Shown here one piece after another: positions 5,998-54,750 of a stretch of DNA of 64,000 nt. This stretch comes from Clostridiales bacterium (GTDB taxonomy: Bacteria > Bacillota > Clostridia > Christensenellales > UBA1242). The position numbers and the translations under genes are program-made. The notes under the pieces are model-generated. The model saw nothing but the letters and a program-made list of their open reading frames with translations. It did no database searches and was not told the DNA's origin. Each line of letters starts with the position of its first letter. Positions within the stretch are counted from its first letter, which is position 1. The stretch is from positions 11,082 through 75,081 of the forward strand of contig DPGI01000004.1 in NCBI GenBank assembly GCA_003522085.1. The letters are read 5' to 3'.

Positions 5998-6144
5998 TTT
6001 GACCTCTCTAAATTTAGATAAGTATAACATAAGAATAAATATTTAAAAAATATTTTTGACTATTTTTTAAAATTTGTTCAATAAGATTTTGTTGACTTTA
6101 TGCTGTTTTTAAACTAAAATAATTGTATAAATGTGAGGTTTTTA

Positions 6145-23000: not shown

Positions 23001-26000
23001 GACTCAACGCCGGCATTAAAGGCACAACCGAAACTGAATATGTAAACGGCGAGTTTGCACTTACAGCCGTTGTTTCAAGAATATTCAACGGCGCAAGAGA
23101 AGAAAAACGTTCAAGTGCATACATTACAATCGTTGACTTCTTGCCTGAAAAAGCAACAATCAAAAATGCTCGCGAAAAAGACAACTCATCAAATCTTGTT
23201 TTGGATTCTTACATTGGCATTCCAGTTGCTGTCGACTTTGACTATACATTTAATCCTGAAGAATATGGATATGATCATTCAAGCGATGGCGACATAACAC
23301 TTGTTAACGATTTGATTCAAGCAAGACAAGAGTTTGAACAAAAAAGATACTATGCAAATGAAAATGCTGGATTCTATATCAACTATGACAAAGAAAGCAA
23401 TCAAGTCATTCCAATTACGCAAAGAATCAAAGTTGGAAATCAAATGGCTAGATTTGTTCAGTCTAGTGAAGACGAAAACGTTTGGACATTTAATTACACA
23501 AAATTCAGATTAAACTACAACTCAAAAACAAACATGCTTACAGTTTTAGGGCTTTCGTCAACTGCTTCACCGGTAACTGTTACACTGATTGATGAAATCT
23601 ATGTGGCAAGCTCTGGAAAAGCAATCAAATACACAATCGAAACTCCTTTTGCTATTGATGTTGTGACTTATTCAGATGCGGATCTGCCACTTTTAATCAG
23701 AGATGAAGAAGAATTTTTGAAGGTGGCAAACGAAGGAACAGCTCAAAACTACATCTTGCTTAATGACATTACATTAAAAAATTACACTCCAATTTCAGCA
23801 AACATGTTTAAGATGCTTGATGGAAACGGATATTCAATCAACATTGAAAGCTTTAATATGGAAGGCTCAGGAACGCTCAATCTTGCATTATTTACAAGCA
23901 TTCCTGCAACAACCACTATTAAAAACCTTAAAGTTAACTATTACAACGGTGGAAAGATCAACGTTGACACAACTTCAAGCGGATACACATCAATCAATGT
24001 TGCTGGACTTGCCATTACAAACGCCGGAATAGTTACAAACACTCAAGTTATTGCTTATCAAAACGCAGATGCGCAAATAATTCACAATAACAGCGTTGGC
24101 TTACAAGTAAACTTAATGCGCGGCTCGACACCATATTACATTGACGACAACTCATCAGTAAAGGCACAAATTGCAGGCTTTGTTTTGACAAACACGGGTT
24201 CAATCACAAATTCTCGCGTTGGTGGTGAAAGCATCGTTGTAATTGGCGATCAAATCGGCGATACAAACTATACTTATTATTCAAATGTCGCGCTCAACCA
24301 ATTTGTTCTTTCTGGACAAGGAGATATGGCCGGATTTGTATTAACCAACTCGGGAAGTATTGTTGCATCTGGCGCATCAAACATTCAAATTACAAACCTT
24401 TCAACGGCGGCAAAAACTTCGACTGCAGGCTTTGCAGTTGCAAATGGTGGAAACATCCGCACATCATACGTTGAAGGATCAAAAGACCCAAGCGAAGCTA
24501 CACAATATCACCTTAAAGGCAGCAGCATCAGCTCAAAGGGAACAGTTGCCGGATTTGTTGTAAACAATACAGCAAATGGTGTTATTGCAAACGCTTACTC
24601 AAACATCTTTATTTCAAACAACGATGAATCACAAAGCAGAACGAGTGCCGGATTTGTTTATAAAAACGAAGGCAAAATCGCTTACAGTTATTCGGCTTCA
24701 AGAGTCGAAAAGGCAAACATTCTTCAAACTAATTTCTCGGGTGTTGACAGCAACGGAAACAGTTTGAACCTCGGAAAAATCGAACTTAGTTATTACTACA
24801 TTCAAGACTATGCCGACGACACTTCTGAAGACATTCAAGGCGCTATTGAAAATCAAGCGACACTCATCAATAAAGATGCAGTAAACAGCGAAAACGCATA
24901 CTATGGTTTCATTTTCAGCAGTTCAACATCGCTTCAAGACGGACTTTGGAAAATTGATGCAGATGCGGAAGAAGGTGTTAAACTTATATGCAGAAATGAA
25001 GTAACAGTCAGCCATAGATATTACTTCTCAATCTCAGAAGATGAATACGCTTTGCCATATTCAATTTTGAGAAACCAAGAAAATACTGCAGGCGTTGAAT
25101 ACAACACCGAACTCGGCAACGACTGCAACCCAATTTTGATTAGCAATGCCAACGAGTTTAAAGAGGCTATGGGCGAATCAAAATCGATTTATGTTCAAAA
25201 ATTCTACAACAAAGACAAAGTATTTGGTGCTTACAGATTTGTAAGTGACATTATGCTTTCAGACTTAAACAACGAACTTGGCAACGCCGAAGTTAAGTCA
25301 ATCGATAAAATCTTTGCTGGTAAACTTGACGGAAACGGCTTCACAATCAAAAACATCTCAATCAAGAGTTCAAACAACAGCGTAGGTTTGTTTGGAGAAA
25401 TCAACAGTGGTATTGTAAGGGGAGTTAACCTTGAAGTTGACAACATCACGGCTTCAAACTCTTATACAGTCGGTGCATTGACGGGACTTGCTAAAAACTC
25501 AATCATATCAAACGTTGCTCTTACTCAAAAAACCGTTACTTCAGGTGGCTCAAACTCAGGTAAGGGTGTGCTTGGAAGAAACATCACCGGCGGAATTATC
25601 GGTTCAGCGTTTGGCGATTGCTACATCACGGGACTTACTTCAACCGATGTTATCGTTCAATCATCTTTCTACAATGATGAAAAAGATGGATATGAAAAAT
25701 ATTTAGACAACACGTTCAACTCAAAAACAATCAGACAAAACGAAAATCAACTTCGCGCACGCTTCTTCTCAGATGACGGAATTGGATCTGTTTCGTTCGC
25801 GGGCGGTGTGATTGGATATTCAGACACTTATCTTACAAACGAAATCTCTTCGCTTGAGTTTGTTTACGGCCAAAACTTAAATGACAGCCGCTATGCAATC
25901 AAAAAACTCGTTGTAAATGGCTCAGTTGATGTTCGCGGCGAAGTAGTCGGCGGCGTGATTGGCTTCACAGGAATCAACACAAAAGCAAAAGATATCAGCC

Positions 26001-29000
26001 TTACAATTTCAAAAGGCGATGGACTTTCAAACAACTTGCTTTCATACAACGGCTTTGCAGGTTCAATCGTAGGTTATGCAAATGGTCAATTCCATCAAGT
26101 TTATGCTGAACACGACGAAAAGACTCAAGACCTTATTGAAACATCAACTAAGAATTATTATAAAGATGGCAACGCCGAAACCGAACGCGGTGAACTTGCA
26201 CTGTTTAAATTTAAAGAAGCTTCGACTGGCGCTTATAAATATGAACCTGTCTATGTCGGCGGCCTTATGGGCGTTATGGATGCCGGAGCAATCACTGTTG
26301 CTTACAGCAAAATCAACGCTATAAATCACTCTGAAACAGGTTATGCAGGCGGAATCGCCGGACTCGTAAAAGACTCATCACAATTTACAGTAAGTGTTGA
26401 ATCTCTTGGCCAAACTGCAAAAACTTCACTTTTACTCAACGAAGTTTACGCATCAGGCGATGTCTATGCTAATGGCGAGAAAGTTGAAGAGAAAACTGTC
26501 ATAGGCTTTGCAGGATTGTTTGGTAAACTTTCAACAAACACAAAATTAACCATGATGTCAGTCAACGCTGTAAACCATTATGGTATTGTTGGCAATAGTG
26601 CTAAATATAAAAACGGAATCTATGCAATTGCTCCAAATGCAAATGCAACCAACGTTCAAGTATTCCCGGCTGTTGTCGCAACAGATGGACTTGCACAGGG
26701 CGACATTGCAAGCGCTAAATCATTTGGGTATATGAGTGATTATTCGCCCAAAGACGCAAACGACAATGTTAAAGTTATTCCTTATGAAGGTTTTGTAGAC
26801 GCAGATTACTTCTTCAAAATCACAGCAGTGACATCGTTCACTTCGTCAGAAGATGGCTACACCGAAACAAACGGCGCGTTCATCAACTCAAACGCATGGG
26901 ATTCTGACAATTGGACACACAAGATCACCGATCTTTATCCAAGAATCAATCTTATAAACAAACTCAACTACATCTATCTTGATGTTTACAACAAAGTTAG
27001 CGTTGTTGCAAAAATGCAAAACTCTTCAATTGAAGTAAGAGTTCGTGGTAAAAAGTCTGTAAACGAAAACGTTTATGAAAACGTTGACCTTACTGACGTT
27101 ATCGGCGCCGGAATCCAAAACTACTCAGGAAAACTTGTCGGCGGAACAGACAGCACTTGGGGAACAGGCTTTGGACCTATCACTCTTGTTGCAAACAAAC
27201 CAGGCGGATACCCAGGAATCATAATCAACAACACTCTATTTGCTTCAACTGGATCGGGTGTTTCAATCAGCAACCTTAACATCATTGTTCGAAATGATAA
27301 TGTTGCAAACCCTCAAACAATACCAAATGAGGGAAGTAATGGCGGTAGATTATCTATAAAGGGTGGCCTTATTTCAAAAGCAGAAGTTATTAGGGGCAAG
27401 TTTGAAAATGTCAAACTTCATGTAAACGAATTAATTTATCTTACTCCTGATGGCGCAGGCAAGGCAGGTTTGCTTGTTCCAAGTGCCAACAGCACTTCAT
27501 TTAGAAATATCACATTTAATTTCTTTGGCCCTGACAATGACTATATGGTATTGGTTAAGAATACTACAAACACAATCAATGCAGGTTTGCTTGCAGGCTC
27601 TATCGTTCAAGCATCAAAATATGAAGCAGTTAAGGTTCAAGATATTTCAATAAGACAAAACAATTTTGCGACAGGTCCAATTAAGCTGCTAAAAGTTCAA
27701 GGAATTCAAGACAGCGGAACAAGCAGTGGAACAGGCAGTGGAACAAGCAGCAAAACAAACAACGTTGGTTTGTATGTTGGTTCAATCACTTCGGCTTCAG
27801 AAGGAAATGTTGCAGCCGTTGTGCTTTCAGCCAAAGCGCCAGATGTGTGGGACGGAACAGCCCCGGTTGACAGCGAAAAAGGTGTCCAATCAATAATCGA
27901 GGTTACTGGTGACGGCGGTACAGTCAACTTTGGTGGATATTTTGGAAGCGTTCAAGCAGCGGGAACTACGCTAACACTATATAAAGAGAAAGATTATGTT
28001 CAAAAATTGAAGCTCTCGAATGCCGTTACAACATCTCGACTTAACGAAGGTGGATTGATTGGTGATGCTGCATTGCAATCGTTTACAATCATAAACCAAA
28101 CCGGAAACGATGAGAAGGTTGTTTTAAACACAGAACTAGAGTTCTCGCAAGATCAAAGCGACACAAACATTGGCTCAATGTTTGGTCATGTGTCAGGAAC
28201 ATTCACAATCGACAACACCTACGGCGGTATCCAAGCAAAAATTACAACTGTGGCTCCTTCAGAGTCGAGCACCAAACCTAAGCTTGATCCTAAAATTGGA
28301 GAAAATGGAGAAACCTATGGTTTAGGTGGGATAATTGGTAAAAATGAAGCGAATATAACAATTAAAAACTTGACAGTTAAACTTGGTATTGGAGACAACA
28401 ACTCAGTAGGCTTGGCCGCGGGAGCTTCAGTGGGCGGCGTAATTGGCGACGAGAATAACGCAGTAGATTGGACAAGCAAAGGGGCTTCAGTTGGTGGAGT
28501 GATTGGAACTAATAGTGGTATCATTACAACTGATGATAATAGCAATATCGAATTTAATGTTGGATCAGAAATTATTAACATATCAATGCCGCAATATTAT
28601 GGAAACTTCGTAGGTTATAATACAGAACCTATAACATTAACCAATTTTAATACTAATGCCAATATAAAAATATCAGGCAAAGAGTCTGGCATAGGGTCAT
28701 ATGGCGGAATAGTTGGACAAACCAGCGGTTCAGTAACAATCGGTCAAAATACTCAATCAGTAAAAATCAATTCAACGTTTGATATTAATTGTAATTCGGC
28801 ACAATCATTTGAATTGGGCGGCGTAATCGGGAACATTAATCAGGAGTATCAAATGGGTTCAAGCGAGCCTGTAAAGATTACTACGCTTAATAACATTATT
28901 TTCAGTGGGGCATTTAAACTCACATTATCTCAGACGAATGTCAGCCACAGTATTGGTGGACTAATTGGTAAAATAAAAGCCGCGAAGAAAGTTTCTTTAA

Positions 29001-32000
29001 CCAGCAACTTAGTATATGGTGATGTTATTTACACATATAGTAAAGCTACTGCTCAATTAAGTACATATCATTTTGGTGGTTTGATTGGTTCGGGAGCAGG
29101 CAAATTGAAGCAGGCCTCAGCCCTTACAGAATTAGCAACAAAAGGTTTCTATAGTAATGACAACATAATTGCCTTTACTAACAACAATTCACGAAAAGCA
29201 GTTGGTACGGTAAGTAACCCTCCTGACCCTATTGGCACTCATGTAAATGCAATTTGTGGAACTAATAGTGATCTTGGATCGCAATCTGATGTTTATTGTT
29301 CACAACTTGTGCTTGCAACAAATGACCAAGCAACCGATTTAGCATATGCTGACAAAACAAGCGCAAACGGTTACAAGACAATAAGCAACAGCGAATCTAT
29401 CATTGCTAAGGCAACTCAATTTGACACAGAATTAACAACTACATCAATGCCTGATGGGCATAAATTTAAACCTATTACTAGTGGTGAAGCCAAAACTACA
29501 GGTTTAAATGGAATTACTTATTACACAACAAAATATCCAAATGTAACAGATGCAACACTTACTAGTGCAGCGTTTATTGGTGATTTTAAAGATTTTAGAA
29601 CAGAATATGGCTATTCGCCTATCAATATCGTTGGACAAAAAGCGTTTGTTTCGGGCGTAGTTATAGACTGCAACATCTCAGATACGGATACAACTGGATT
29701 TACTGATTCAGTTGGCGGAATTGCGAAGAAACTTCAAGATGGAATTATCTTCGCTTGCAAAGCAACAGGCAAACTTTCTGTTGGTGGAACAACGACACTA
29801 AACGTTGGTGGCATTGTGGGTTTAATGCAAACAGGTCGAATTGCAGAATGCTATTCTTCAGTCGACATCGTTTATCGCGCAGGCAAAAACGGCGATACAC
29901 TTGGAAATGCTGCAGCGGTTGCTGTAACAAGCGGCGAAAACAAAGAAATCAACTTTATTGAAAACACTTATGCAACGGGCGAAGTTGCTTCATATATAAG
30001 TGCAAATCTTTATGCGTTCACAAACGGGGCAAATGCATTTGTTCAAAACTCATACACAATATCTCACATCAGTGCTAAGGACCACACAAGCATTGACATG
30101 TCTTCTAATGTAGAACTTGGAATATTTGGCTCTGCAGACACAACAGCTTGCTCATATGATGAAAATGGAACAGAATGCCTTGAAAATCAAGATAAAAATG
30201 GTTTTAAGGGTAACAACAAAGTAAGCAACGTTTCATATAAAAACGGAACGGAATTAACAGGCTTAACTTCAGGTTGGGTAGCAGATATTAACAATAACTA
30301 TGGCTATATGCGTCGAAACTTTAAAGCATTTGAGTCATCATCTAGCGAGAAAATTGGCGATATAACATATCTTCTTATTCCAAATGCAACAAAACTTTAT
30401 CAAATGACAAATGATACTACAACTACAGCGCAAACAGTAAATAGTAGTTATAAATTAACTCGTGATATTGATTTGTCAAAAACGACATACAATAACAAGA
30501 GCGCTCAACCAGCAATAGTTATCAGCGGAAAAACATTTGAAGGTGACAACCACACAATTAAAAATGTTACGGCAACACTATTTAGTAATGTGACAACCTT
30601 AAACAACTTGCGTGTAACAACAGTTGTAGATGGTGATAAGGGTAGCGGTATCACTGGCAGTGCAGTTGTGGCAAATGAAGTTGGCACAGCAACCAACGTT
30701 GTTGCAACTGGAATATTGACCGGAGATGACACCACAGTTGGTGGATTATTCGCCACAGCAACTGGCGCTTTAAAAAACTGCAAAAACTATGTAAAAATTG
30801 ATGTAATTAACAAAACAGGTGCAAAAGTTGGTGGTATTGCAGGCGAAGGCAAAGGCGCAACAGAATGTATTAACTATTCTCCAATCAACGTCTCGAGTTC
30901 AACGGGCAGCTATGTTGGCGGAATTTTTGGTAAGGGCACAGAAAAAACAGAAAAAATAGAAAATTGTGGAAACGAAAACACAGTGTTTAATGGTTATACC
31001 GCAGGAGGCGACGGCAATTATTATGCTGCAGGCATTGTTGGGTCTTCATCAGCACAAATTAGCAGTTGCTACAACACAGCAATGATTAAAGCGGGCAATA
31101 AAAACATTAACGCTTCAGGTGAAACAAAAGCCTACGCAGCCGGAATTGTTGCAGATGGCACTAATGTTGCAAATGACGCTGATAAGAAATGCTACAACTC
31201 AGGGCATATTGAAGCATTGGGAAGTTTAGCAGGTGCACTGAAGTCTCCGACTGTCACAAATGGTATCATTACAGACAATAACCAAGCATATAAAATCAAC
31301 TTTGAGTTTAATAGTGCTGATATAATAAATGTTAAAGCCGGTTCAATAACGGGAGATGGCAATGATAATAGTTCTTCTTATGTATTCAGAAATGGTTTAC
31401 ATGGCAAATACACAAATGAAATTGATGCGGGAAGCTTAGAAAACGAACATGCAGATGAAACGGGCTTAGATATTAATGGACTTAATATAAAAGCTTCTGA
31501 TCAAACAGCGCATGTGGCTTCTATTGACGAAATGGGTGTTCCAAAATCATTCTTTGTTACTTCAACTAGAAATATTAAATATCCTGGCATAGACAAACCT
31601 AAAAGTCAAATTCGTTATACAACCACAAAATCAGTAACAGAAACATACTATAAAACATCCATTTTAAATGGTCAAAATGCCATTAAAATAAATGGTAACG
31701 ATACAACTATTTCGCAGGAGATAGGGAAAATTAGAACTACAATCTCAAATCAGACCCCAAATGCTGGATCTGCCAATGAAAAAGTTGATATCAGTGGTGA
31801 AACTTATATGTTTGTAAGTTTGGGAAGTGGATTTGCGCAAGTTGCAAATTCTACTACGAGAACGGAAGAAATTAGCATTTTAGGGTCAACGACAGTTAGT
31901 GGCAATAAAACGATAACTGAGCTTGACAACGCTGGTTATACATTTAGGATAACAGACCTTATTGTTTCAGAAGTGGCAAACGCTTCTGACCTAACTGTTT

Positions 32001-35000
32001 CAAGCCAACCAAGCTATAGCAACAACAATCTTAAGTTCACAGTTTCTTATAATTGCGTTCCTACAACGGCTACTTCTGCTAAACTTTCATATAAGATAAC
32101 GGCTGAAAAGGCAAATGGCACAATAACTATTAATTTAGTGCAAAGCAACATCTTTGAAGAAAATGGCAACACCGTTATTTATCTTGAAGGACAAAAAGAC
32201 ACTGCTGGAAACAATATTAATATAAGTGGACTTACAAATGGTCAAGAATACACGCTTACAGTAAATGGTGAACCAAAAAAATTTAAATATGCAAGCGCAA
32301 CAAAAACATTGTCTCGCAGTGAAAATTTATTGAAAACATGGAAAGGTAAGCCGGCAACAATCAACCTTAATGAAGGAAAGACCACAACTATAAATGAAAC
32401 CAGTTATGCTTCTTCGAATGTTGAAGACGTAGAAATAGATACATCAGAGTCAGATCAAACCGAAATTCGAAGATTGTATACGTCTGTTAGTGTCAGAAAT
32501 GGAGATGAAGGCGATGCTGTTATGGACGGCGTTAAAGTCATTAAAGATCGCACTTATCAATGGAATGAAAAAAATGGCAAAGTTGACAAACACAGGCTTA
32601 GAACGACTCGAAGAGTAAAAGGCAAAGTGAACTCAGTGTCTATTTCAAGCGCCTGGGGAAACCATACATTTACTATTCAAGGCGGAGGTGAGAATGCATG
32701 GTGGCATGTACCCCAAGGTTTGCATGATCCATTCTATCTTGACGTTTGGTGGGATAACATGGATGGAGAAGGATATTCGAAAGTTTATTTTGACGTGCAA
32801 GGCAGTGCCAACTTAGGTGATGAAGCGCAGACAAGGTTCGCTAATGTAAATATTACATTCAATTTGGATGGATCTAATTATAATAGTTACAACACATTTA
32901 AAGATAGTTATGTAAAAACAACGGCTACCAGCAGTTACGATAAAATTGAATCAGAATATCAAAAAAATGGTGACAAGGTGCTGCGTATTACTGGCTATCC
33001 AACTAGTGCATATGGCAATACAAGTATTTATGCAACAGACTATTATTATTATCAATCATACCAGCTTACTAAAGTTACAGCTACGGCTGCTAACACAAAT
33101 GCAACTTTAGTGTATACTTTCAATGGAGAAGTTAAAAACATCTATCCTAGCGATAGCAATAAGGCAGCATCTTTCGAAAACATTGCTTCAGGCACTAAAA
33201 ACACGCTAACTCGTAATGTTGTTACCATCTCAGGATTAACTGTCAATGCAACGAAAGGTCAAATATCTAATAGCGAGAGTTGCGCAGTTCTTTATGAACG
33301 GGTGTTGAAATTGACATCTCAAAATGCCATAACATCTAATTCCGACGATTCTACCATTACAATTGGCGACACAAATTATACCTATGAACTTACAGGAAAG
33401 GCAGGTGATGCAAATAGACAACTAGCAAAATTCAATGGAGCCGAAGTTGCTGGTGAGGAAATTAGCGTTGGCAGAGCAACGTATTCATATGAAGTTGATG
33501 GAGATGGATTGTCTTTATATCAACGGTTTATAGGAGACAAAGGCAAACTTTCGCTCCCAAAAGAAACAAATGAAATTATCATCAAATATGGTTTTGATGC
33601 AAATGGAGATATTGTAATTGCTGGATACCAAGTTAATTCTAATGGAATGGTGACTATCGACGGAACAGCATATTATAAACTTGAAGATGATAAAGTGATT
33701 TCTAGAGAGCCTAAGTTTACAGAAAGCAATGGGCAAACCACTATATATTTTTATGGTGAAATTAATGTGTATTCGTATATTGAGTATTCTGTTGATATAA
33801 AAGTGGCGGATGATTACAAGACATTTAATTTAGTTAATCAAAAGTCAGAACTTGGAATTACAGGACAAGATTGCAACTTTATTGATTCAAACGCATATGA
33901 AGGACAAACAATTGACGGTCAAACAATTTCATATGAAAACAATAAAATTATTGTTTCAGCAGGCAGAGCTTCTGGTGCAAGAAGTATTGATTTGATTTAT
34001 TCATCGTTCACTTCGGTTGATATTAATAAAGCAATTTATAGAAGTGAAGAACAAACTGCCGTTACTATAAATAATATGATTTTAAAAAGAGATATTGATG
34101 TTGGACATATAAACAATTCATATTCAAATTCTGGTTTCGGCGGAAAAATATCTGGTGACGGATATATCATCAATTACACATCGGAAAATGCAAGTTTGTT
34201 TAATCAAGTGTCATCAAACAACAATTTTGTAAAAGATTTGAGTGTGGCAGGTTCAATAATTACAGATGGAACATCAACAACTTCTAATTACGGAATGCTT
34301 GCAAAAACAATCAGCACAGGCATAAAAAACATTTCAACATATGGCAGTATTTCACACATAACAACAAGAGCAATCAAAGCGGGCGGGATTGCTTATGAAA
34401 TTAATGGATCAGCACAAAACTTAAACAACTTTGTTTCATATTCAGCATTCAACTATGCCTATGATGGAACAACAGAGTGCGGAATGATGGGCATTATGTG
34501 GAATAAAGGAACTGATAATTCGATATCTTATGCAAATAACTATGGCACCATCATTGGTTTTAGAGGGAAAGATGGAGCTGATGGCACTTCTACTGATAAA
34601 GCAGGGGATGATGGTGAGGACGGTCAAAATGTTTATGCAATCTCTTCGCAAAACGTAACTTCTGCGAATAATTACGGCATAGTCAAAGCCGGCGACGGCG
34701 GCAACGGCGGCCGAGGTGCCGATGGAGTTGGCGGCAGTGATAAAACTGATGGAACCGCTCCAACTACTGGTATAATTGGGGGTTCAGAGGGTGAGCAAGG
34801 GAAGCCTGGTTCAGCTTACGTAGCATCACAAGATGACACTCTGTCAAAGTGCTCTAATGCATTGAAGTCTGAAATTGGCAAAAAAGGCAAAAAGGGCAAC
34901 TCCGGCTGGGGTGGCTTAAATTTATCTGAGAATTTAATAGATGAAAAAGAGCTTGTTGGACTTTCTTATCTACATTGGGAATTTTATGCCAATGCTGGGG

Positions 35001-35320
35001 TAGCCCAAGAACAACAGACTGAGGCCGGTAAATACAAAAATTGTGGCTTTGAAATAAAAAGGCATAAAGGTCCAGGCGGCTCTTATCGACATTATTACAT
35101 AAACGATAATCACATGGTTTTTGAATCAAGCAAAGATACTGAGTGGAAAGATGGCTACGGACAAGGATTTATTGATGTGAATGGCAAGTTTATTTATAAG
35201 TGGGAAAAAGTGTACTTTTATTTTTTTACTAAATACACAGGCAATGCAAGCAAATATAAAGCTTTTATATATGTATATGGTGGTATTGTAGATGGTAAAA
35301 TTTCACCTTGGGAAGGATAA
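17027..35320 (+). CDS. Giant surface lipoprotein (6,097 aa) with Ig-like region, six or more GLUG-type beta-helix-like modules, a Gly-rich linker and a switchable C-terminal domain
   Basis: A single uninterrupted 18,294-nt ORF. The TTG start is 5 nt after AGGAGG (17016-17021). The N-terminus MKNKISKIFLALFSVFLLVGGGIFSAC|GKEQ is a signal peptide with a lipobox-like FSAC. The first ~1,000 aa are beta-rich and Big_2-like. Repeated modules have the pattern 'NP.xI..., F.G.LDGNG(Y/F).I.N..., VGLFG, GG(I/V/L)(V/I/A)G' (GLUG-motif type). They start near nt 20141, 23687, 25127, ~27950, 30371 and 34076. The C-terminus is a Gly-rich, partly G-X-Y stretch followed by a ~130-aa terminal domain. Confidence 0.9.
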   Translation: MKNKISKIFLALFSVFLLVGGGIFSACGKEQPQATIEVSSSDFAGDDYIEIDLGSSINTATITAKVTGASAGIVSVNNDYQDKIATSAVYDSKTESTVITIVGKSEGNAELILKSHGNGQRIIRVYVYSDILALDPSDELSEQYVVRGQSNILNPDKLLKFTSRPNGESNRKNVTWSLKTQDENLSIDGNVLTVGEDYQKFNTEASVEVYADSVYVDKRATIKLNVISPLPDFATYISRTSDAQGTELTEAGQAFNLVKNNDLNEEASLYARLVVPVSSKLNVTPKVYDAEGRTITDKLDITLFNSRIISNTNEIIYLIKAKSQIIEPQKLTVCFDVAYEKYSYTKESTKFAVDLVDVIDRIDVKSNNLSITKNESINVYDYYNNDSSYQFGHPFYVALGPDTVANSLAKYFVQVTIPAGRSINGTVLLSDQFGNPISFGEKIDSTALGDVYRSQPINNKTVVYLIAGNAFTNGDEIDCVFMSQQSESVNLPIKIRLYNSPKDNFDIDGGDLEYYLSTNKHDRKIVEISSSSLMGIDKAGVKLSYEENDKIKVSNYQFDSETGKISFTIENLALNLSGNDAKLAIKVEHKNGFVSKQEIIVSAFIPLKNAYVNYQGQSTTAVSKTEYGKQNFNSTNVEGEGDNTLTRLVLKTGSTVSMTFNSNCNANVAFKFVKGVNLDTIEDENAKLQELINATEDTSVNNPLANAGRMTMPSVDVKGYALVTFTGYDEDHQEITFYRYFALEGYTSPTRLTANVDEKGVELFAADSISSEDTQLSTSRITIRYRTDGLPVTYFGNGNGATVNIARGNTISISNENHTNETISFDVTALTTNGYSAWEDQILVSYKVFNSVYYAQINVSIKNAQRVEKVVYTNQNPDDGIIYLDVNGTTSNERNAVILTSVTPSNAYNQELRYIFVADSGTQSDLVSVNELGAVSFKAGTRVGGTGYIYVLPKDAIRNIGGAQGIKYYVDGDDNVKNVLLTEIATKYDEITTKGYFKGKILDKEKNIREKIYYKDSLLKIRVVVADGASEETATRIYNANSLKNIDLNRHYELMNSISLDSNWTKLAGTLNGTLRGHNSNVTIRFNGGGSIFENIGKGAKVYNLNLAGNVKGSGMLAQTNEGSISNVNVVVYSEGATIKSSTITGKGYVGGIVGINKGTIQDSAVEGATIVSDSGEASLSDIAGGIAGQNSGKILNSKVEFYNIDKVGGTNIVNTFKAFYVGGIVGELTEGATIEKSYAYNYSNKYPLSSVYPQDTKLSALITADDNPGESITKSDFQAVSGAIVGKTIRYDETKNLGYVVNSFAILAPKEEEENISWVGQNGKWVYTKSGSGYILALTNGGSISDSYWGYTKQTTVGTTERWIVSGDGFKEYVRDGAAHLTFYQAQAISEGVVNGFFVKDVKESNSAKALAITKDASGNPVDDQGLLFIKSLKDSSGLDDGERSSLRALNTISVARLLGISDENVNKIVISSDSSDITIDGKNIILLNRSDEVAITVSSKYDFTIKKQFTFKIIYAVDEFTIWHDGIETSGFTLQEGRPDGVSFTIKDFVYIGNSGNKFEIKLEDFVITPSLEEIENLSDLVTFKTDGMTASILARRGTKDLLTKNSKEFFEAYVQIDLKNVDGEYKATVQKFTKKTLQIYPTKGAQTIRVPVDQINIEPAYQSNLNVVLVTDDNNDQLNLSLAFGDTVLSKEQTGNIYTFSLNGTKRIQIVAEAQKYDSTNALRNYALTITVCDEYRSQISESENYTLSLTSQSGTADNEPVNVNITLSTQMINNIDMTNYKAGTTLVENGVVYYSHETETISVISPGRNTMMQVAIDPTFAYYDHMTLTFENADGAILGITALDEGGTNGYKVDYSAVQIDGGVRLARRSSGNYNFRLYAAANITTDTVFYVVASFLDKNNNLVVPAQRYELYVSYLPEAEITVNGDISAVVAKGGSLDLVMLLKSDQEIESLVANNVRGITISPQSTWTIEDNGNGTKTMRAKLYAGLNAGIKGTTETEYVNGEFALTAVVSRIFNGAREEKRSSAYITIVDFLPEKATIKNAREKDNSSNLVLDSYIGIPVAVDFDYTFNPEEYGYDHSSDGDITLVNDLIQARQEFEQKRYYANENAGFYINYDKESNQVIPITQRIKVGNQMARFVQSSEDENVWTFNYTKFRLNYNSKTNMLTVLGLSSTASPVTVTLIDEIYVASSGKAIKYTIETPFAIDVVTYSDADLPLLIRDEEEFLKVANEGTAQNYILLNDITLKNYTPISANMFKMLDGNGYSINIESFNMEGSGTLNLALFTSIPATTTIKNLKVNYYNGGKINVDTTSSGYTSINVAGLAITNAGIVTNTQVIAYQNADAQIIHNNSVGLQVNLMRGSTPYYIDDNSSVKAQIAGFVLTNTGSITNSRVGGESIVVIGDQIGDTNYTYYSNVALNQFVLSGQGDMAGFVLTNSGSIVASGASNIQITNLSTAAKTSTAGFAVANGGNIRTSYVEGSKDPSEATQYHLKGSSISSKGTVAGFVVNNTANGVIANAYSNIFISNNDESQSRTSAGFVYKNEGKIAYSYSASRVEKANILQTNFSGVDSNGNSLNLGKIELSYYYIQDYADDTSEDIQGAIENQATLINKDAVNSENAYYGFIFSSSTSLQDGLWKIDADAEEGVKLICRNEVTVSHRYYFSISEDEYALPYSILRNQENTAGVEYNTELGNDCNPILISNANEFKEAMGESKSIYVQKFYNKDKVFGAYRFVSDIMLSDLNNELGNAEVKSIDKIFAGKLDGNGFTIKNISIKSSNNSVGLFGEINSGIVRGVNLEVDNITASNSYTVGALTGLAKNSIISNVALTQKTVTSGGSNSGKGVLGRNITGGIIGSAFGDCYITGLTSTDVIVQSSFYNDEKDGYEKYLDNTFNSKTIRQNENQLRARFFSDDGIGSVSFAGGVIGYSDTYLTNEISSLEFVYGQNLNDSRYAIKKLVVNGSVDVRGEVVGGVIGFTGINTKAKDISLTISKGDGLSNNLLSYNGFAGSIVGYANGQFHQVYAEHDEKTQDLIETSTKNYYKDGNAETERGELALFKFKEASTGAYKYEPVYVGGLMGVMDAGAITVAYSKINAINHSETGYAGGIAGLVKDSSQFTVSVESLGQTAKTSLLLNEVYASGDVYANGEKVEEKTVIGFAGLFGKLSTNTKLTMMSVNAVNHYGIVGNSAKYKNGIYAIAPNANATNVQVFPAVVATDGLAQGDIASAKSFGYMSDYSPKDANDNVKVIPYEGFVDADYFFKITAVTSFTSSEDGYTETNGAFINSNAWDSDNWTHKITDLYPRINLINKLNYIYLDVYNKVSVVAKMQNSSIEVRVRGKKSVNENVYENVDLTDVIGAGIQNYSGKLVGGTDSTWGTGFGPITLVANKPGGYPGIIINNTLFASTGSGVSISNLNIIVRNDNVANPQTIPNEGSNGGRLSIKGGLISKAEVIRGKFENVKLHVNELIYLTPDGAGKAGLLVPSANSTSFRNITFNFFGPDNDYMVLVKNTTNTINAGLLAGSIVQASKYEAVKVQDISIRQNNFATGPIKLLKVQGIQDSGTSSGTGSGTSSKTNNVGLYVGSITSASEGNVAAVVLSAKAPDVWDGTAPVDSEKGVQSIIEVTGDGGTVNFGGYFGSVQAAGTTLTLYKEKDYVQKLKLSNAVTTSRLNEGGLIGDAALQSFTIINQTGNDEKVVLNTELEFSQDQSDTNIGSMFGHVSGTFTIDNTYGGIQAKITTVAPSESSTKPKLDPKIGENGETYGLGGIIGKNEANITIKNLTVKLGIGDNNSVGLAAGASVGGVIGDENNAVDWTSKGASVGGVIGTNSGIITTDDNSNIEFNVGSEIINISMPQYYGNFVGYNTEPITLTNFNTNANIKISGKESGIGSYGGIVGQTSGSVTIGQNTQSVKINSTFDINCNSAQSFELGGVIGNINQEYQMGSSEPVKITTLNNIIFSGAFKLTLSQTNVSHSIGGLIGKIKAAKKVSLTSNLVYGDVIYTYSKATAQLSTYHFGGLIGSGAGKLKQASALTELATKGFYSNDNIIAFTNNNSRKAVGTVSNPPDPIGTHVNAICGTNSDLGSQSDVYCSQLVLATNDQATDLAYADKTSANGYKTISNSESIIAKATQFDTELTTTSMPDGHKFKPITSGEAKTTGLNGITYYTTKYPNVTDATLTSAAFIGDFKDFRTEYGYSPINIVGQKAFVSGVVIDCNISDTDTTGFTDSVGGIAKKLQDGIIFACKATGKLSVGGTTTLNVGGIVGLMQTGRIAECYSSVDIVYRAGKNGDTLGNAAAVAVTSGENKEINFIENTYATGEVASYISANLYAFTNGANAFVQNSYTISHISAKDHTSIDMSSNVELGIFGSADTTACSYDENGTECLENQDKNGFKGNNKVSNVSYKNGTELTGLTSGWVADINNNYGYMRRNFKAFESSSSEKIGDITYLLIPNATKLYQMTNDTTTTAQTVNSSYKLTRDIDLSKTTYNNKSAQPAIVISGKTFEGDNHTIKNVTATLFSNVTTLNNLRVTTVVDGDKGSGITGSAVVANEVGTATNVVATGILTGDDTTVGGLFATATGALKNCKNYVKIDVINKTGAKVGGIAGEGKGATECINYSPINVSSSTGSYVGGIFGKGTEKTEKIENCGNENTVFNGYTAGGDGNYYAAGIVGSSSAQISSCYNTAMIKAGNKNINASGETKAYAAGIVADGTNVANDADKKCYNSGHIEALGSLAGALKSPTVTNGIITDNNQAYKINFEFNSADIINVKAGSITGDGNDNSSSYVFRNGLHGKYTNEIDAGSLENEHADETGLDINGLNIKASDQTAHVASIDEMGVPKSFFVTSTRNIKYPGIDKPKSQIRYTTTKSVTETYYKTSILNGQNAIKINGNDTTISQEIGKIRTTISNQTPNAGSANEKVDISGETYMFVSLGSGFAQVANSTTRTEEISILGSTTVSGNKTITELDNAGYTFRITDLIVSEVANASDLTVSSQPSYSNNNLKFTVSYNCVPTTATSAKLSYKITAEKANGTITINLVQSNIFEENGNTVIYLEGQKDTAGNNINISGLTNGQEYTLTVNGEPKKFKYASATKTLSRSENLLKTWKGKPATINLNEGKTTTINETSYASSNVEDVEIDTSESDQTEIRRLYTSVSVRNGDEGDAVMDGVKVIKDRTYQWNEKNGKVDKHRLRTTRRVKGKVNSVSISSAWGNHTFTIQGGGENAWWHVPQGLHDPFYLDVWWDNMDGEGYSKVYFDVQGSANLGDEAQTRFANVNITFNLDGSNYNSYNTFKDSYVKTTATSSYDKIESEYQKNGDKVLRITGYPTSAYGNTSIYATDYYYYQSYQLTKVTATAANTNATLVYTFNGEVKNIYPSDSNKAASFENIASGTKNTLTRNVVTISGLTVNATKGQISNSESCAVLYERVLKLTSQNAITSNSDDSTITIGDTNYTYELTGKAGDANRQLAKFNGAEVAGEEISVGRATYSYEVDGDGLSLYQRFIGDKGKLSLPKETNEIIIKYGFDANGDIVIAGYQVNSNGMVTIDGTAYYKLEDDKVISREPKFTESNGQTTIYFYGEINVYSYIEYSVDIKVADDYKTFNLVNQKSELGITGQDCNFIDSNAYEGQTIDGQTISYENNKIIVSAGRASGARSIDLIYSSFTSVDINKAIYRSEEQTAVTINNMILKRDIDVGHINNSYSNSGFGGKISGDGYIINYTSENASLFNQVSSNNNFVKDLSVAGSIITDGTSTTSNYGMLAKTISTGIKNISTYGSISHITTRAIKAGGIAYEINGSAQNLNNFVSYSAFNYAYDGTTECGMMGIMWNKGTDNSISYANNYGTIIGFRGKDGADGTSTDKAGDDGEDGQNVYAISSQNVTSANNYGIVKAGDGGNGGRGADGVGGSDKTDGTAPTTGIIGGSEGEQGKPGSAYVASQDDTLSKCSNALKSEIGKKGKKGNSGWGGLNLSENLIDEKELVGLSYLHWEFYANAGVAQEQQTEAGKYKNCGFEIKRHKGPGGSYRHYYINDNHMVFESSKDTEWKDGYGQGFIDVNGKFIYKWEKVYFYFFTKYTGNASKYKAFIYVYGGIVDGKISPWEG
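34640..34736 (+). repeat. Left arm of a perfect 97-bp inverted repeat (inside the giant CDS)
   Basis: ATCTCTTCGCAAAACGTAACTTCTGCGAATAATTACGGCATAGTCAAAGCCGGCGACGGCGGCAACGGCGGCCGAGGTGCCGATGGAGTTGGCGGCA. I reverse-complemented 35937-36033 block by block and it is identical, 97/97. Confidence 0.95.
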
Positions 35321-35936
35321 AAAAACGGCTAATATAGCCGTTTTTTTTATTACCAAGCAGAAATATTTGCATCCATGATGCCAGAATATGCATAACGACA
35401 GAATTTAATATCCTTAGGGAACAAATTTCCTGAGTTGGTCTTGACAGATATTTTACCTGTCCAGTATACAGCAAAATAATCTTGAATTGTCATATTGTCA
35501 AAATTAACTTCATATTCATGAACAGCCACATCAGCATGTATATTTAAGTATAATATATAAGAAGTATAAAATTTAGGATTTTCATACCCACGCGGACGCA
35601 CAACAACCTTACTTTCTATAGTGTTTGTTGATGCTTCGCCATTAGTCCCTGTGGCATGCCTGTAAATTGTCTCTTGCAAGATATCTCTATCTTCAAGCCA
35701 AACTCCATTAGAATAATCACAAAGTCGGTTGCTAACTGCAACTGTTTTTGTTTTAGAAACTTCATATTTATTTAAATTTAATCCGCCCCAACAACCATTG
35801 CCATTCTTTCCATCTTTGCCGTTTGTTGCTTTTTCTTCTTTATTAAATAAATATGCCGTGCCTGCTGTCCCTTTGTCCCCACCTGTTCCGTTTTGAGTCC
35901 CGTTTATTGGAGCGTCTTCTTTTTTAATGCTATCCT
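34737..35936. other. Putative invertible 1,200-bp segment carrying two opposed C-terminal cassettes and a shared terminator
   Basis: The segment is bounded exactly by the two 97-bp arms. It contains cassette CT1 (34737-35320, + strand, currently expressed), a bidirectional terminator (35321-35348) and cassette CT2 (35936-35350, - strand). Confidence 0.7.
35321..35348. terminator. Bidirectional intrinsic terminator shared by the two C-terminal cassettes
   Basis: AAAAA, stem CGGCT (35326-35330), loop AATAT, stem AGCCG (35336-35340), then TTTTTTTT. The A-run and T-run flanks are symmetric, so it works in either orientation. Confidence 0.75.
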
Positions 35937-36033
35937 TGCCGCCAACTCCATCGGCACCTCGGCCGCCGTTGCCGCCGTCGCCGGCTTTGACTATGCCGTA
36001 ATTATTCGCAGAAGTTACGTTTTGCGAAGAGAT
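35350..36033 (-). other. Promoterless, start-less alternative 3' cassette (CT2) for the giant gene, including the right repeat arm
   Basis: The minus-strand frame reads ISSQNVTSANNYGIVKAGDGGNGGRGADGVGG, identical to giant aa ~5872-5903. It continues with a diverged 195-aa ending (KDSIKKEDAPING...GKDGKNGNGCWGGLNLNKYE...YSGIMDANISAW*) that is homologous in layout to CT1 (...KGKKGNSGWGGLNLSENL...YGGIVDGKISPWEG*). The only upstream in-frame 'start' is a TTG at 36135 with no RBS. Confidence 0.75.
35937..36033 (-). repeat. Right arm of the perfect 97-bp inverted repeat
   Basis: Exact reverse complement of 34640-34736. Identity ends abruptly at both borders: outer flank CAT|ATC here versus GCA|ATC in the giant gene, and inner flank GGCA|AGG here versus GGCA|GTG. 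Confidence 0.95.
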
Positions 36034-36120
36034 ATGGGCGCGGGAGAGCGAGCGGAGCGAGCGGGGGCGGCGTGAGCCGGCTAAAAATTTTGCGGGCAAA
36101 ATTTTTGCTCCCGCGCGGTG
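36034..36120. other. Short, strongly GC-rich non-coding island abutting the right repeat arm
   Basis: GGGCGCGGGAGAGCGAGCGGAGCGAGCGGGGGCGGCGTGAGCCGGC has 40 G/C in 46 nt by my count, in a high-30s % GC background. It contains a 9-bp tandem AGCGAGCGG x2. A long-range stem pairs GCGCGGGAG(A)GC with GCTCCCGCGC, enclosing an AAAAATTTT/GCGGGC/AAAATTTTT palindrome. Confidence 0.6.
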
Positions 36121-36163
36121 TGGAGAGAAATGCAAAAAAATATTAGAAAACAGGCGAAATCAT

Positions 36164-36192: not shown

Positions 36193-36218
36193 TTTGTCTG
36201 AAATAAAGGGCTTTGATT

Positions 36219-36920
36219 ATGGAAGAAAAGAAGAATATGCATGCAGGGCACAGACAAAGGTTGCTTGAAACTATTCTTGACGCAGGTCTAGATAAGGTCA
36301 GCAATGTTCAAGCATTAGAATTTATTTTAACATATGTAATCCCTCGTTGCGACACAAATGAACTTGCTCATCGTTTGCTGGACAAGTTTGGAACAGCGGC
36401 AGATGTTTTGAATGCAGATTGGGAATATGTGGCAGAAGTTGAAGGCATGGGTGAAACTTCAGCAAAGAAGCTTCATCTGTTTGTTGAAATTTTTGATTAC
36501 TACACAGAACAACAACTTGCGAAACGTTATGTATTTGAATATCGCAGTGATATTTCTGATTTCTTTGAAGAGCTTTTACGTTTTAAACCAGTTGAAACAA
36601 CATATATAGTCGGCATTGATGCTTCGAATCGTGTTAGATCAAAGATTAAACTTGGCACTGGTGGAATTAACAGTGTTGGGGTTAGCACACATCAAATTGC
36701 AAAGTTTGTAACTAGTTCGAAGCCTACATACATCTTTCTTGCTCACAATCATCCAGGCGGCAAGGCTTTGCCATCTCAACAAGATGTAGAAGGGACGGCA
36801 GTTGTTCGCACTTTGCTTAGCAGTTTGAATGTGCCATTAGCCGATCATATAATTGTTGGTATTGACGGCGTTTACAGTATGGAGCACGAAACATATTTTA
36901 GAGAATTTAGGACCAATTAA
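36219..36920 (+). CDS. radC: RadC-like JAB/MPN domain protein
   Basis: N-terminal HRQRLLE... helix-hairpin-helix-like region (GMGETSAKKL) and a JAB motif (LAHNHPGG...PSQQD). ATG 36219 follows AAGGG. Confidence 0.85.
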   Translation: MEEKKNMHAGHRQRLLETILDAGLDKVSNVQALEFILTYVIPRCDTNELAHRLLDKFGTAADVLNADWEYVAEVEGMGETSAKKLHLFVEIFDYYTEQQLAKRYVFEYRSDISDFFEELLRFKPVETTYIVGIDASNRVRSKIKLGTGGINSVGVSTHQIAKFVTSSKPTYIFLAHNHPGGKALPSQQDVEGTAVVRTLLSSLNVPLADHIIVGIDGVYSMEHETYFREFRTN

Positions 36921-37279
36921 ATTTTTATAAATTTTGCAATAATTGAACCTAAAAGACCACCTATCATTGAAAAAACAGCGATAAAAATTAGCAAAAGCCA
37001 ATATTTTGGCTTTTCTTTTTTGTTTTTTTCTTCCTTTTCAGTTATTTGGTTTCCTATTGGCAAAACGCATAAACAATAAACGTTTTCATCGTCGTATTTT
37101 ACATGTATGCATTCGCTTCTTTCTAAATATGTGATAATATGGTCAAGATTTTCTTCATCGACTCGATATTTTGCGGGCATGGCAGATATAATGTCACTTT
37201 TGTCGATCACTTTGTATCCTGAACCATGACACTCTTTTTGTAATATCTTTAATATTATGGTTGATTTTAAGTCTAGCAT
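36917..37279 (-). CDS. Small protein with a winged-helix-like N-domain and a C-terminal TM anchor (paralog A)
   Basis: 120 aa. The pattern ILKILQKECHGSGYKVIDKSDIISAM...LDHIITYLERSECIHVKY...YCLCVLPIG is followed by a KEK-rich linker and a TM helix (WLLLIFIAVFSMIGGLLGSIIA). It is homologous to the protein at 38123-38482. Its stop overlaps the radC stop (TTAA). Confidence 0.55.
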   Translation of the reverse strand: MLDLKSTIILKILQKECHGSGYKVIDKSDIISAMPAKYRVDEENLDHIITYLERSECIHVKYDDENVYCLCVLPIGNQITEKEEKNKKEKPKYWLLLIFIAVFSMIGGLLGSIIAKFIKI

Positions 37280-38082: not shown

Positions 38083-38124
38083 AAAAAAAAGAGTAGCCGA
38101 ACAAAGGAGCGGCACTCTTTTTTT
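38083..38124 (+). terminator. Probable intrinsic terminator or attenuator
   Basis: A8 run, stem GAGT(A)GCCG ... CGGCACTC (8 bp with one bulge), then a T7 run. The TTG start of the next gene lies inside the T-run. Confidence 0.4.
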
Positions 38125-38482
38125 GACGAGAAAAGAAAGGTCAGTTTTATTATATCTTTGCAAGGTTTGCCCTAAAAAACGGACATGCCTAATTTCTCCA
38201 AGTGACGTTTCGGCGGCGTTATCAAAAAAGTTTGTGCTTTCTATTGCCGAACTTGATGAAATTATGACAGTGCTTTCTGATGAAAACTATATTGATTTTG
38301 TTGTTTCTGAAAGCAAAATGGGGTATTATTATTGTGTAACATTAAAAAAGAAAGGACAGACATTTGTCATAGACTCAAAAAGTCGAAGGCGAAATTTTGG
38401 TTTGCTTGTATTGCGCAGTTTGTTTTTGGCGACAGTCAGTTTTATTTTCGGGCTTGTGCTGAAAACTATTTTCAAAGGATAA
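38123..38482 (+). CDS. Small protein with a winged-helix-like N-domain and a C-terminal TM anchor (paralog B)
   Basis: VLLYLCKVCPKKRTCLISPSDVSAAL...LDEIMTVLSDENYIDFVV...YYCVTLKKKG is followed by a basic linker and a TM helix. It aligns along its full length with the 36917-37279 product. The TTG start is uncertain. Confidence 0.5.
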   Translation: MTRKERSVLLYLCKVCPKKRTCLISPSDVSAALSKKFVLSIAELDEIMTVLSDENYIDFVVSESKMGYYYCVTLKKKGQTFVIDSKSRRRNFGLLVLRSLFLATVSFIFGLVLKTIFKG

Positions 38483-45260: not shown

Positions 45261-45289
45261 TTGAAATCTTCAGCAGAAAGTGCTATAAT
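45261..45289 (+). promoter_or_regulatory. Near-consensus sigma-A promoter with extended -10
   Basis: TTGAAA (45261-45266), 17-nt spacer, TGcTATAAT (45281-45289). Confidence 0.6.
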
Positions 45290-45329
45290 ATTATGTAAAC
45301 AAAAAAATATTTTGTTAAGGAGAGGGAAA

Positions 45330-51267: not shown

Positions 51268-51942
51268 ATGGAAAAATTATCAGATTTAATTTCAAAAAAA
51301 ATATTTTCTTTTGCCCAAGGCCGCAAAATTGGCTATGTGTTAAACGTTAAGTTTGACAATGCTTTTAACATTGATAAAATTATTGTGGCAAGCGAAGAAG
51401 ATGAAAAAGAACTTGAACTTTCCGCCGATCGCATTCGAATAAGCGGCGACAATATTTTTATTGAAAACGAAAACGCGATTGTGCCTGCAACCTCACAAGT
51501 GTTCAGTATTATTGGCAAACAAGTTTTTACAAATCGCGGAATAGACTTGGGAAGGGTTATAGATGTTTATTTATCTAACAAAAAAGCCGTTTGCGTCATA
51601 TCTGATAAGTTGGCGTTTTCACCAAGACAAATTGGGGTGATTGGACAAGATGCTATAATCTTAGGTAAGGTGAATGCCACAGCAAGGCAAGTTAATGTTT
51701 TTGCTCCAAAAGGGGAAGAAGAGTATGTTTCGATTATGCCAATTCAGCAAAAGATAGAGCCGCAAATCCCACAGCGCGTGAGCATGGATTCGCGAAGTTT
51801 AATTGGCAAAATGGCAACAAAAGATATTTTTGGGTTAAATAATGAATTAATTATTAAAAAATATGAAATAATTACTCAAAAAAAATTAAATGAAATAAAA
51901 AAACACAATAAATTAAATATATTATTTTATAATTGCAAATAG
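51268..51942 (+). CDS. Protein with two PRC-barrel-like segments (224 aa)
   Basis: Two segments of the form L.GK.V......G..lG.V.dv... (FSFAQGRKIGYVLNVKFD and IIGKQVFTNRGIDLGRVIDVYL). This is pattern-level recognition only. Confidence 0.4.
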   Translation: MEKLSDLISKKIFSFAQGRKIGYVLNVKFDNAFNIDKIIVASEEDEKELELSADRIRISGDNIFIENENAIVPATSQVFSIIGKQVFTNRGIDLGRVIDVYLSNKKAVCVISDKLAFSPRQIGVIGQDAIILGKVNATARQVNVFAPKGEEEYVSIMPIQQKIEPQIPQRVSMDSRSLIGKMATKDIFGLNNELIIKKYEIITQKKLNEIKKHNKLNILFYNCK

Positions 51943-54728: not shown

Positions 54729-54750
54729 TTTTAACTTTTGAAAGGAAAAA

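Follow-up and report, generated by a model that had tools for sequence, protein, structure and literature searches.

The 64-kb window analysed here (64,000 nucleotides (nt) of a Clostridiales bacterium, assembly GCA_003522085.1, contig DPGI01000004.1) carries the gene of a giant lipoprotein of 6,097 amino acids (aa), which begins with a TTG start codon and occupies positions 17027–35320 of the plus strand. The 3′ end of this gene lies in a 1.4-kb block bounded by inverted repeats, and we consider it highly probable that the locus is a gene-altering DNA inversion switch. Recombination between the ~100-nt in-frame arms would flip the block, fuse a start-less stored cassette in frame to the constant body of the protein and turn the old tip into the stored one; the two convergent cassettes would share one two-way terminator in either orientation. 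A previous sequence-only reading of the window had predicted that inversion swaps the C-terminal ~195 aa in frame, and this prediction is borne out by a related locus that carries the inverted state (L001) and by full-length giants that end in tips other than that of the window (tips B and C, see below). All of the evidence consists of consensus contigs and assemblies, and from it we infer that the switch is reversible within a lineage.

The left arm (34640–34736, plus strand) lies inside the expressed gene, the constant part of which (5,871 codons) extends up to position 34639, and the right arm (35937–36033, minus strand) forms the head of the silent cassette. As described earlier, the arms form a perfect 97-nt inverted repeat with sharp outer boundaries: in a direct string test they are reverse complements at 97/97 positions, and identity drops sharply at the unrelated outer flanks (left ...GTTTATGCA, right ...CGCGCCCAT). 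A repeat scan extends the arms to 34640–34742 and 35931–36033 (103 nt, 98%), with 1,188 nt in between. Translation confirms that both arms share the same codon phase and encode ISSQNVTSANNYGIVKAGDGGNGGRGADGVGG. The arm pair is the sole long inverted repeat within the window, and the first 30 nt of the arm are present in exactly two copies, with none expected from 100 shuffles.

Between the arms, the expressed cassette (tip A, 34737–35320, plus strand) comprises a Gly-rich linker, a GNSGWGGLNL motif and a beta-rich body that ends with ISPWEG and a stop codon. The silent cassette (tip B, 35350–35936, minus strand) comprises a linker, the motif GKNGNGCWGGLNL and a body that ends with ISAW and a stop codon at 35350–35352. 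The two tips are ~50% identical for ~75 residues past the arm, from the Gly-rich linker to the GN-GW-GLN motif, and are unrelated thereafter. All cassettes follow one plan, in which a Gly-rich linker is succeeded by the conserved GN-GW-GLN motif and then by a variable body of ~125–190 residues that is rich in beta structure. The gap of 29 nt between the two stop codons is taken up by a bidirectional intrinsic terminator (35320–35348), in which an A-run, a hairpin and a T-run lie between the convergent cassettes; it folds with −16.5 and −15.0 kcal/mol on the two strands (z −5.4 and −4.5), and this single terminator serves both orientations. The layout of expressed end, terminator with A- and T-run flanks and opposed alternative ending thus stands as first described. 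A scan of 33.0–38.5 kb against Rfam returned just two sub-threshold chance matches, both on the terminator, and a scan for promoter and terminator consensus sequences gave no more sites than shuffled sequences did. A second, weak crossover point is provided by an inner repeat at the GN-GW-GLN motif, with a left copy at 34877–34924 (plus strand, GKKGKKGNSGWGGLNL) and its partner at 35773–35820 (minus strand). In the window, the inner copies are identical at 35/48 positions as reverse complements (longest identical run 9 nt), and in the related loci L091 and L093 the inner repeat spans 39 nt at 90%.

The inverted state is found in L001, a 243-kb gut-metagenome contig that is syntenic with the window and conspecific with it. 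In a BLASTN comparison, the right flank aligns over 10,163 nt on the plus strand (98.7%), a 1,394-nt segment including both arms aligns on the minus strand (98.2%), and the giant gene beyond the segment is back on the plus strand, with the strand changes falling at the arms. The giant of L001 consists of the constant part and tip B, and its silent slot is occupied by the expressed tail A of the window, represented by the short open reading frame (ORF) P0005. In addition, the asymmetric loop of the terminator is reverse-complemented in L001, which indicates that the segment flips as one block. The difference between the window and L001 is a clean en-bloc inversion between conspecific strains.

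Inverted repeats may confuse short-read assemblers, and an inverted state could therefore arise by mis-joining at the repeat. That this accounts for the observations is next to inconceivable, as the alternative states recur across independent samples, assemblers and archives (SPAdes NODE, MEGAHIT k119/k141, Logan), the MEGAHIT k119/k141 contigs were built with a k larger than the arm, and the pattern of single-nucleotide polymorphisms is coherent, as is the flipped terminator loop. The 1.7-kb contig L098 might have betrayed an assembly break at the arms, but it is simply short and extends ~300 nt into the flank.

Related contigs were recovered from several human gut metagenomes, including a Hadza sample; L001, L002, L083 and L085 derive from ERZ4559632, ERZ27274155, ERZ27244629 and ERZ27295805, respectively. 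A search with the silent cassette matched only short ORFs, which consist of the translated spacer next to the right arm (MPAKFLVGSRRPRSLRSLSRAH), the arm and then differing tails. We named the tip types A to F and describe each locus by its expressed/silent pairing. Among conspecific loci, defined by flanks 98.3–98.8% identical to the window (L098 was placed by synteny alone), the pairing is A/B in the window, L002 and L094 plus L097, B/A in L001, D/C in L083 and L096, E/D in L084, B/F in L085 and C/E in L098. Six tip types therefore occur in a single species, and five of them (A to E) are each found in expressed as well as in silent slots; tip F is expressed only within a mosaic. Tip B, silent in the window, is the expressed tip not only in L001 and L085 but also in the full-length giants P0012, P0040 and P0043; P0044 ends in tip A and P0064 in tip C. 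In the silent slot, A was counted in 6 contigs and B in about 10. The changing partners indicate that, besides being inverted, cassettes are also replaced between strains. A search with a specific 27-nt arm pattern led to four stretches. A pattern search based on the cassette alignment across genome and metagenome contigs gave 600 low-complexity matches, none of them confirmed, because the Gly-rich pattern saturated the scan.

Among 1.84 billion proteins, the cassette profile matched only 32 representatives, which are giants of 6,076–6,321 aa, matched at their C-termini, and many ORFs of 200–300 aa with further tail types. The order of giant gene, silent cassette, RadC and 120-aa ORF is held in at least four further relatives, and inverted repeats are found at the corresponding position in L088 (131 nt, 97%), L086/L087 (110 nt, 93%), L090 (96 nt, 93%) and L091–L093 (105 nt, 95%). 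Across five species the arms are 87–100% identical within a genome and diverged between species; this is the pattern of concerted evolution, which needs ongoing exchange between the arms. Decay of the arms in relatives had been proposed as a sign against a switch, and the arms are instead conserved.

The cassettes are also under selection. The ratio of non-synonymous to synonymous substitution rates (dN/dS) ranges from 0.13 to 0.59 for the cassettes and from 0.20 to 0.58 in the comparisons of tip B. For tip B of the window and its counterpart B′ in L088, which are silent in both loci, dN/dS is 0.20 at 56% aa identity and both ORFs are intact. Such purifying selection on silent cassettes implies that stored cassettes are expressed often enough for selection to act. 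A dead silent cassette, the other sign against a switch that had been named beforehand, is not what the species of the window displays, as its cassettes are intact and under purifying selection.

Crossovers have left further traces in L089, a mosaic in which the expressed cassette combines the B linker with the F body and the silent cassette the F linker with the B body. The junctions lie at the inner GN-GW-GLN repeat and are non-reciprocal. In alleles of the L089 type, a deletion at an AGCAA microhomology has removed the right arm together with the beginning of the linker, and the locus is locked with the F body; loss of the right arm in this P0045-type allele means that it can no longer flip at the outer arms. 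The locked mosaic (L089:10001–10597, P0045) is equivalent to ~35350–36135 of the window. The mosaic allele is the product of a crossover at the inner repeat and afterwards lost one arm.

Several observations weigh against a working switch. The variation seen in the consensus contigs is one between strains and assemblies. The locked, arm-deleted P0045-type allele is the commonest in public assemblies, with about 172 contigs (the longest of 656 kb). In L095, a second strain of the L086 species whose expressed tip differs from that of L086, the silent cassette is truncated by a stop codon 148 aa after the arm (at ~4324, minus strand), so that decay of stored cassettes does happen. Finally, structure prediction does not lend the tip a defined fold: the AlphaFold2 model of tip B, computed from an alignment of 31 sequences, has a mean predicted local distance difference test (pLDDT) score of 64, which falls to 31–46 over residues 151–200, leaving the body poorly modelled, and a Foldseek search of this model against the PDB gave no match with E<1. 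The first three of these points would all fit an old tail duplication that is not a switch, in which rare inversions and horizontal replacements have occurred and the lineages are effectively fixed. We regard this explanation as unlikely: it is at odds with the ongoing exchange needed for the concerted evolution of the arms in five species, with the presence of 5/6 tip types in both slots, with stored cassettes that are intact and have dN/dS values well under 1 even at 56% identity, and with silent A and silent B both being common.

A different objection concerns the opposed ORF itself (35350–36135, minus strand), which gene callers predict in many assemblies and which might thus be an independent gene for a ~249-aa protein (MPAKFL...), the repeat being merely a shared domain. 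The sequence-only reading had held that the alternative ending lacks a credible start, having only a TTG and no ribosome-binding site. The first part holds, since upstream of the arm there are only TTG starts and neither ATG nor GTG; the second was too strong, as a Shine-Dalgarno-like GGGAG is located 8 nt ahead of the second in-frame TTG (36099–36097, minus strand). Both this element and the TTG are, however, buried within a stable hairpin. The leader lacks a signal peptide and is rich in Arg, being translated from the GC-rich spacer. Neither start nor leader is conserved: the upstream sequence differs between species, and in L086, L090 and L091 stop codons immediately precede the arm. As the cassettes are also found fused to the giant protein, an independent gene is very improbable, and the opposed ORF is better read as the stored cassette of the switch.

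The spacer that gives rise to this leader extends from the right arm to the promoter region of radC (36034–36135) and contains a GC-rich stretch and the hairpin GCGGGCAAAATTTTTGCTCCCGC, which folds with z −2.4 on the minus strand. At 36034–36110 its GC content is 62%, compared with a window average of 37.7%, and it carries short repeats of the GAGCG type. The spacer is near-invariant in six conspecific loci, is found in L088 too, and had no Rfam match in the scan of 33.0–38.5 kb; it may insulate the silent cassette. At the same position, L091 has a different GC-rich stretch, and L086 and L090 are AT-rich.

What is exchanged is probably a recognition surface. The distal position on an N-terminally anchored protein, the predicted beta-rich structure and the extreme polymorphism suggest that the tip is a ligand-binding or antigenic determinant, and the variable body probably governs the binding preferences of the protein's distal end or the way in which it is recognised. 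Comparisons of the tips with Pfam, PHROGs and NCBIfam revealed no meaningful family; matches at E~0.005 to collagen-like and tail-fibre PHROGs are due to the Gly-rich linker. A conserved demarcation motif followed by highly polymorphic C-termini, with an extra copy stored downstream, would also fit polymorphic toxins with an 'orphan' module (CdiA/Rhs), which would place the cassettes in inter-bacterial competition. The chances of this are slim, because there is no immunity ORF (the cassettes are separated by the 29-nt terminator only), the stored copy is inverted and not direct, and the exchange is reciprocal; in addition, no toxin domain was found in Pfam, PHROGs or NCBIfam.

None of the ORFs of at least 100 aa in the window contains a recombinase domain (resolvase, invertase or integrase), which upholds the earlier statement that the window has no serine or tyrosine recombinase gene. 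The same is true of the regions within 10 kb of the related loci L001, L002 and L083–L093, and RadC and the 120-, 210- and 119-aa ORFs have no recombinase domain either. We give about an even chance to a homology-dependent or otherwise invertase-free exchange across the arms. We lean towards homology-dependent exchange because of the lack of an adjacent recombinase in any species, the gene conversion of the arms and the mosaic crossover at a second conserved coding motif. The arms of L002 differ at 8 positions, all in the inner half, and the inner-half haplotype is B-linked on both arms in the window and A-linked on both arms in L001, a distribution that shows gene conversion of the arms. As conversion has homogenised the arms of the window and of L001, the arm haplotypes do not place the crossover point. 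By analogy, the homology-dependent route could be of the RecA type or could be the unexplained recombinase-independent route reported for pneumococcal hsdS, where inversions between coding repeats still arise when the local recombinase, other known site-specific recombinases or recombination genes are missing (PMC6620402).

Two features of the arms sit uneasily with homologous recombination. Uninterrupted arm identity is just 22–62 nt in several strains, which is short for efficient RecA recombination, and between the species of the window and L086 the arm's outermost ~30 nt have changed unusually little, as would fit a site recognised by a protein. Both would be explained if the same switch were operated by a dedicated site-specific recombinase whose gene lies at another place in the chromosome and whose core site is contained in the outer ~30 nt of each arm; the remainder of the arm would then be duplicated coding sequence only. 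RecV of Clostridioides difficile and Mpi of Bacteroides fragilis are precedents for such a recombinase. In three species the outer limit of identity is the same, at ATCTCTTCGCAAAAYGTAAMTTCTGCG, and it falls at an identical ATCTCTTCGCAAAAC in all conspecific loci, in L088 and in L086. Within the first 30 nt of the arm, the window and L086 differ at 2 positions, and further in there are synonymous changes in 9/15 comparable codons. Moreover, the inner-half arm haplotype travels with its cassette in most strains, which places the crossovers in the outer half, and the outer arm end contains an imperfect 13-2-13 dyad (9/13). Invertible regions that have no recombinase close by are also documented (PMC9881135).

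These arguments make a recombinase acting in trans a serious possibility, though one that we would put short of even. In the window, neither the 34 kb upstream of the locus nor the 28 kb downstream of it contains such a gene, nor is there one within 10 kb in the relatives, and the outer motif is just ~70% conserved in L090 and L091. The dyad is unremarkable, with about 0.2 expected per arm by a binomial estimate; TTCGCA-N12-TGCGAA, the 13-2-13 dyad, was accordingly rejected as a recombinase core site. A sequence that partly matches ARACGTW, the motif of Bacteroides Mpi, was likewise discarded, being unconserved in L086 and L090. Furthermore, neither the conversion of the arms nor the non-reciprocal mosaic at the inner motif is a product of conservative site-specific recombination. 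A doubtful further variant, which we rate as improbable, is a programmed inversion that proceeds without an invertase by an undescribed route akin to that of hsdS, driven by conserved cis-features and including the nested repeats and the exchange between strains. Candidate features would be the ~100-nt in-frame arms, the GC-rich element of short repeats and hairpin at the silent arm and the always-adjacent RadC-like gene. If this were true, a single locus could show four combinations of linker and body by way of its nested outer and inner repeats, and cassettes exchanged among strains would provide the whole species with a library of tips.

The giant protein to which the tips are joined appears to be lipid-anchored. 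At the N-terminus, its translation (LLVGGGIFSAC) resembles the signal peptide of a lipoprotein and includes a lipobox-like FSAC; the lipobox was judged by inspection and has Phe at position −3. MKNKISKIFLALFSVFLLVGGGIFSAC|G is kept in all full-length relatives (P0012, P0040, P0043, P0044 and P0064), the N-termini of which are identical to that of the window giant. No Pfam or NCBIfam family matched either half of the 6,097-aa protein at E<=0.01 and the literal string GLUG is not found in it, so that its previous designation as a 'GLUG-type adhesin' (PF07581) is unsupported. Over positions 25000–34600 of the window, the body of the giant gene is 79–97% identical to that of L001, L083, L084 and L085, with many indels, whereas the housekeeping flank is 98.3–98.8% identical in those conspecific strains. 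From this comparison, the entire giant protein, beyond the tip alone, appears to be under diversifying pressure or frequent recombination.

To the right of the silent cassette, its invariable neighbour is a RadC-like JAB/HhH gene (36213–36920, plus strand; PF04002, 4e-24), which holds an equal position in all related loci and served as flank marker; an exact look-up of the RadC protein of the window gave no record. In one related species it is tandemly duplicated (L091:8383–9828, L092, L093). Downstream neighbours include, besides RadC, two small membrane-anchored proteins, a 210-aa protein, UvrB, UvrA, an MBL-fold hydrolase and HtrA (UvrA, MBL and HtrA were identified in the window via syntenic loci); upstream are Mfd, Pth, a PP-loop ATPase and others. 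UvrB is at most 66–69% identical to proteins of the species-representative genome collection, with Clostridia MAG HGM11416, Christensenella sp. UBA1259 and Ca. Onthoplasma as best matches; its genus is therefore absent from that collection, and by this placement the source is an uncultured, Christensenellales-like lineage of Clostridia. The two small proteins, of 120 aa (36917–37279, minus strand) and 119 aa (38123–38482, plus strand), are apparently paralogous; each has a soluble N-terminal domain and one C-terminal transmembrane helix and is without family match. At the end of radC there is an overlap with the 120-aa gene, and the two are neighbours in all related loci.

A second giant lipoprotein gene (54742–64000, plus strand) encodes more than 3,086 aa, continues past the end of the window and begins with a signal peptide ...LFFVGCGESP. 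Its relatedness to the first giant is patchy (25–27% identity over ~350–420 aa). Directly upstream of it lies the gene of a 907-aa TraG/VirB4-like P-loop ATPase (52005–54728, plus strand; PF19044, DUF87, FtsK-like), preceded by that of a PRC-barrel protein (51268–51942); the ATPase could be an export or assembly partner or the remnant of a mobile element. Three further ORFs, at 10579–12366, 45261–47222 and 4876–6030 (595, 653 and 384 aa), are without Pfam match, the first two without NCBIfam match as well.

Taken together, the locus documents comparatively well how the tip of a very large surface protein varies in an uncultured lineage of human-gut Clostridia. The species has at least six tip alleles, which points to strong diversifying pressure on the tip, with host ligands, immunity or phages as its source. 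The 'hypothetical proteins' of one class (MPAKFLVGSRRP...) are stored cassettes and not genes, and inversion within a coding sequence without a linked recombinase bears on how such inversions are catalysed. For experiments, the locked and mosaic alleles are natural, ready-made controls.

Gene-altering inversions have been defined by a long repeat, a short gap between the coding sequences, a strong length asymmetry and intra-species breakpoints at the repeats (Milman et al. 2023; PMC9881135). The present locus shows all of these features, with its 97-nt repeat, its 29-nt gap, products of 6,097 versus ~227 aa and the inversion between the window and L001. The arrangement described in PMC9881135 and PMC10028968 is the same: one repeat lies in a long coding sequence and its partner heads a short opposed fragment, tail to tail and with a tiny gap. 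Chanin et al. list 733 'partial intergenic invertons' (PMC10028968). The novelty implied by the sequence-only reading was hence overstated, as gene-altering and partial intergenic inversions number hundreds to thousands in published surveys (PMC9881135, PMC10028968). Recombinase genes are statistically enriched beside such loci (PMC9881135), whereas none is near the locus studied here, and the target, an unannotated 6,097-aa lipoprotein of uncultured gut Clostridia, is not among the enriched families named in the passages of Tables 1–2 of that work that the comparison covered. A further difference is that the species of the window segregates six tip alleles.

The locus had been likened to the G segment of phage Mu and to shufflons. 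The likeness holds for what the system does and fails for membership: the locus has no gene of Gin, Rci or another recombinase beside it, and as no such enzyme is present, the locus is not a member of the Gin/Hin or Rci family. Mu G/Gin and P1 C/Cin have the same layout of a constant N-terminal part outside the repeats and opposed C-terminal receptor-binding parts inside, and the P1 C segment has long repeats with crossover sites at their outer ends. Unlike these, the present locus has no adjacent serine invertase (PF00239), no enhancer-bearing gene and no accessory or chaperone gene for each tip; it is chromosomal, not phage-borne, and its repeats are ~100 nt of coding sequence. Compared with a 26-bp site of the hix/gix type (two 12-bp half-sites and a 2-bp core), the outer end of the arm has the imperfect 13-2-13 dyad (9/13), which by estimate is not above chance and is not well kept in L090 and L091.

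In the R64 shufflon (named in Table 1 of PMC9881135), the C-terminal tip of a surface adhesin is likewise exchanged by inversion at more than one crossover point. R64 has four segments and seven 19-bp sfx sites, however, whereas the present locus has one block with two nested pairs of repeats and no Rci-type tyrosine recombinase. The vsa/HvsR system of Mycoplasma pulmonis and related systems also keep the 5′ expression site and signal peptide of a lipoprotein and invert alternative 3′ regions into it; they use many silent genes, ~34-bp sites and an adjacent recombinase, in contrast to one cassette, ~100-nt arms and none here. In the spnIII/ivr hsdS locus of Streptococcus pneumoniae, specificity domains are exchanged through inverted repeats in coding sequence that measure tens to hundreds of bp, and the locus sets a precedent for a switch without identifiable invertase; it differs in its target, a restriction-specificity subunit, and in that it normally includes a recombinase gene (CreX/PsrA) (PMC6620402).

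The S-layer sap system of Campylobacter fetus varies a large surface protein between conserved coding regions, and does so largely in dependence on RecA and with no dedicated invertase; it moves whole genes behind a single invertible promoter by ~600-bp 5′ homologies, whereas the window locus exchanges the 3′ tip only. The pilin inversion of Moraxella is functionally the same device. Seen against these systems, the switch is genuine but of a familiar kind, and what is particular to the locus is its huge and obscure target, the repertoire of six alleles, the nested second crossover point, a natural locked allele and the lack of a linked recombinase.

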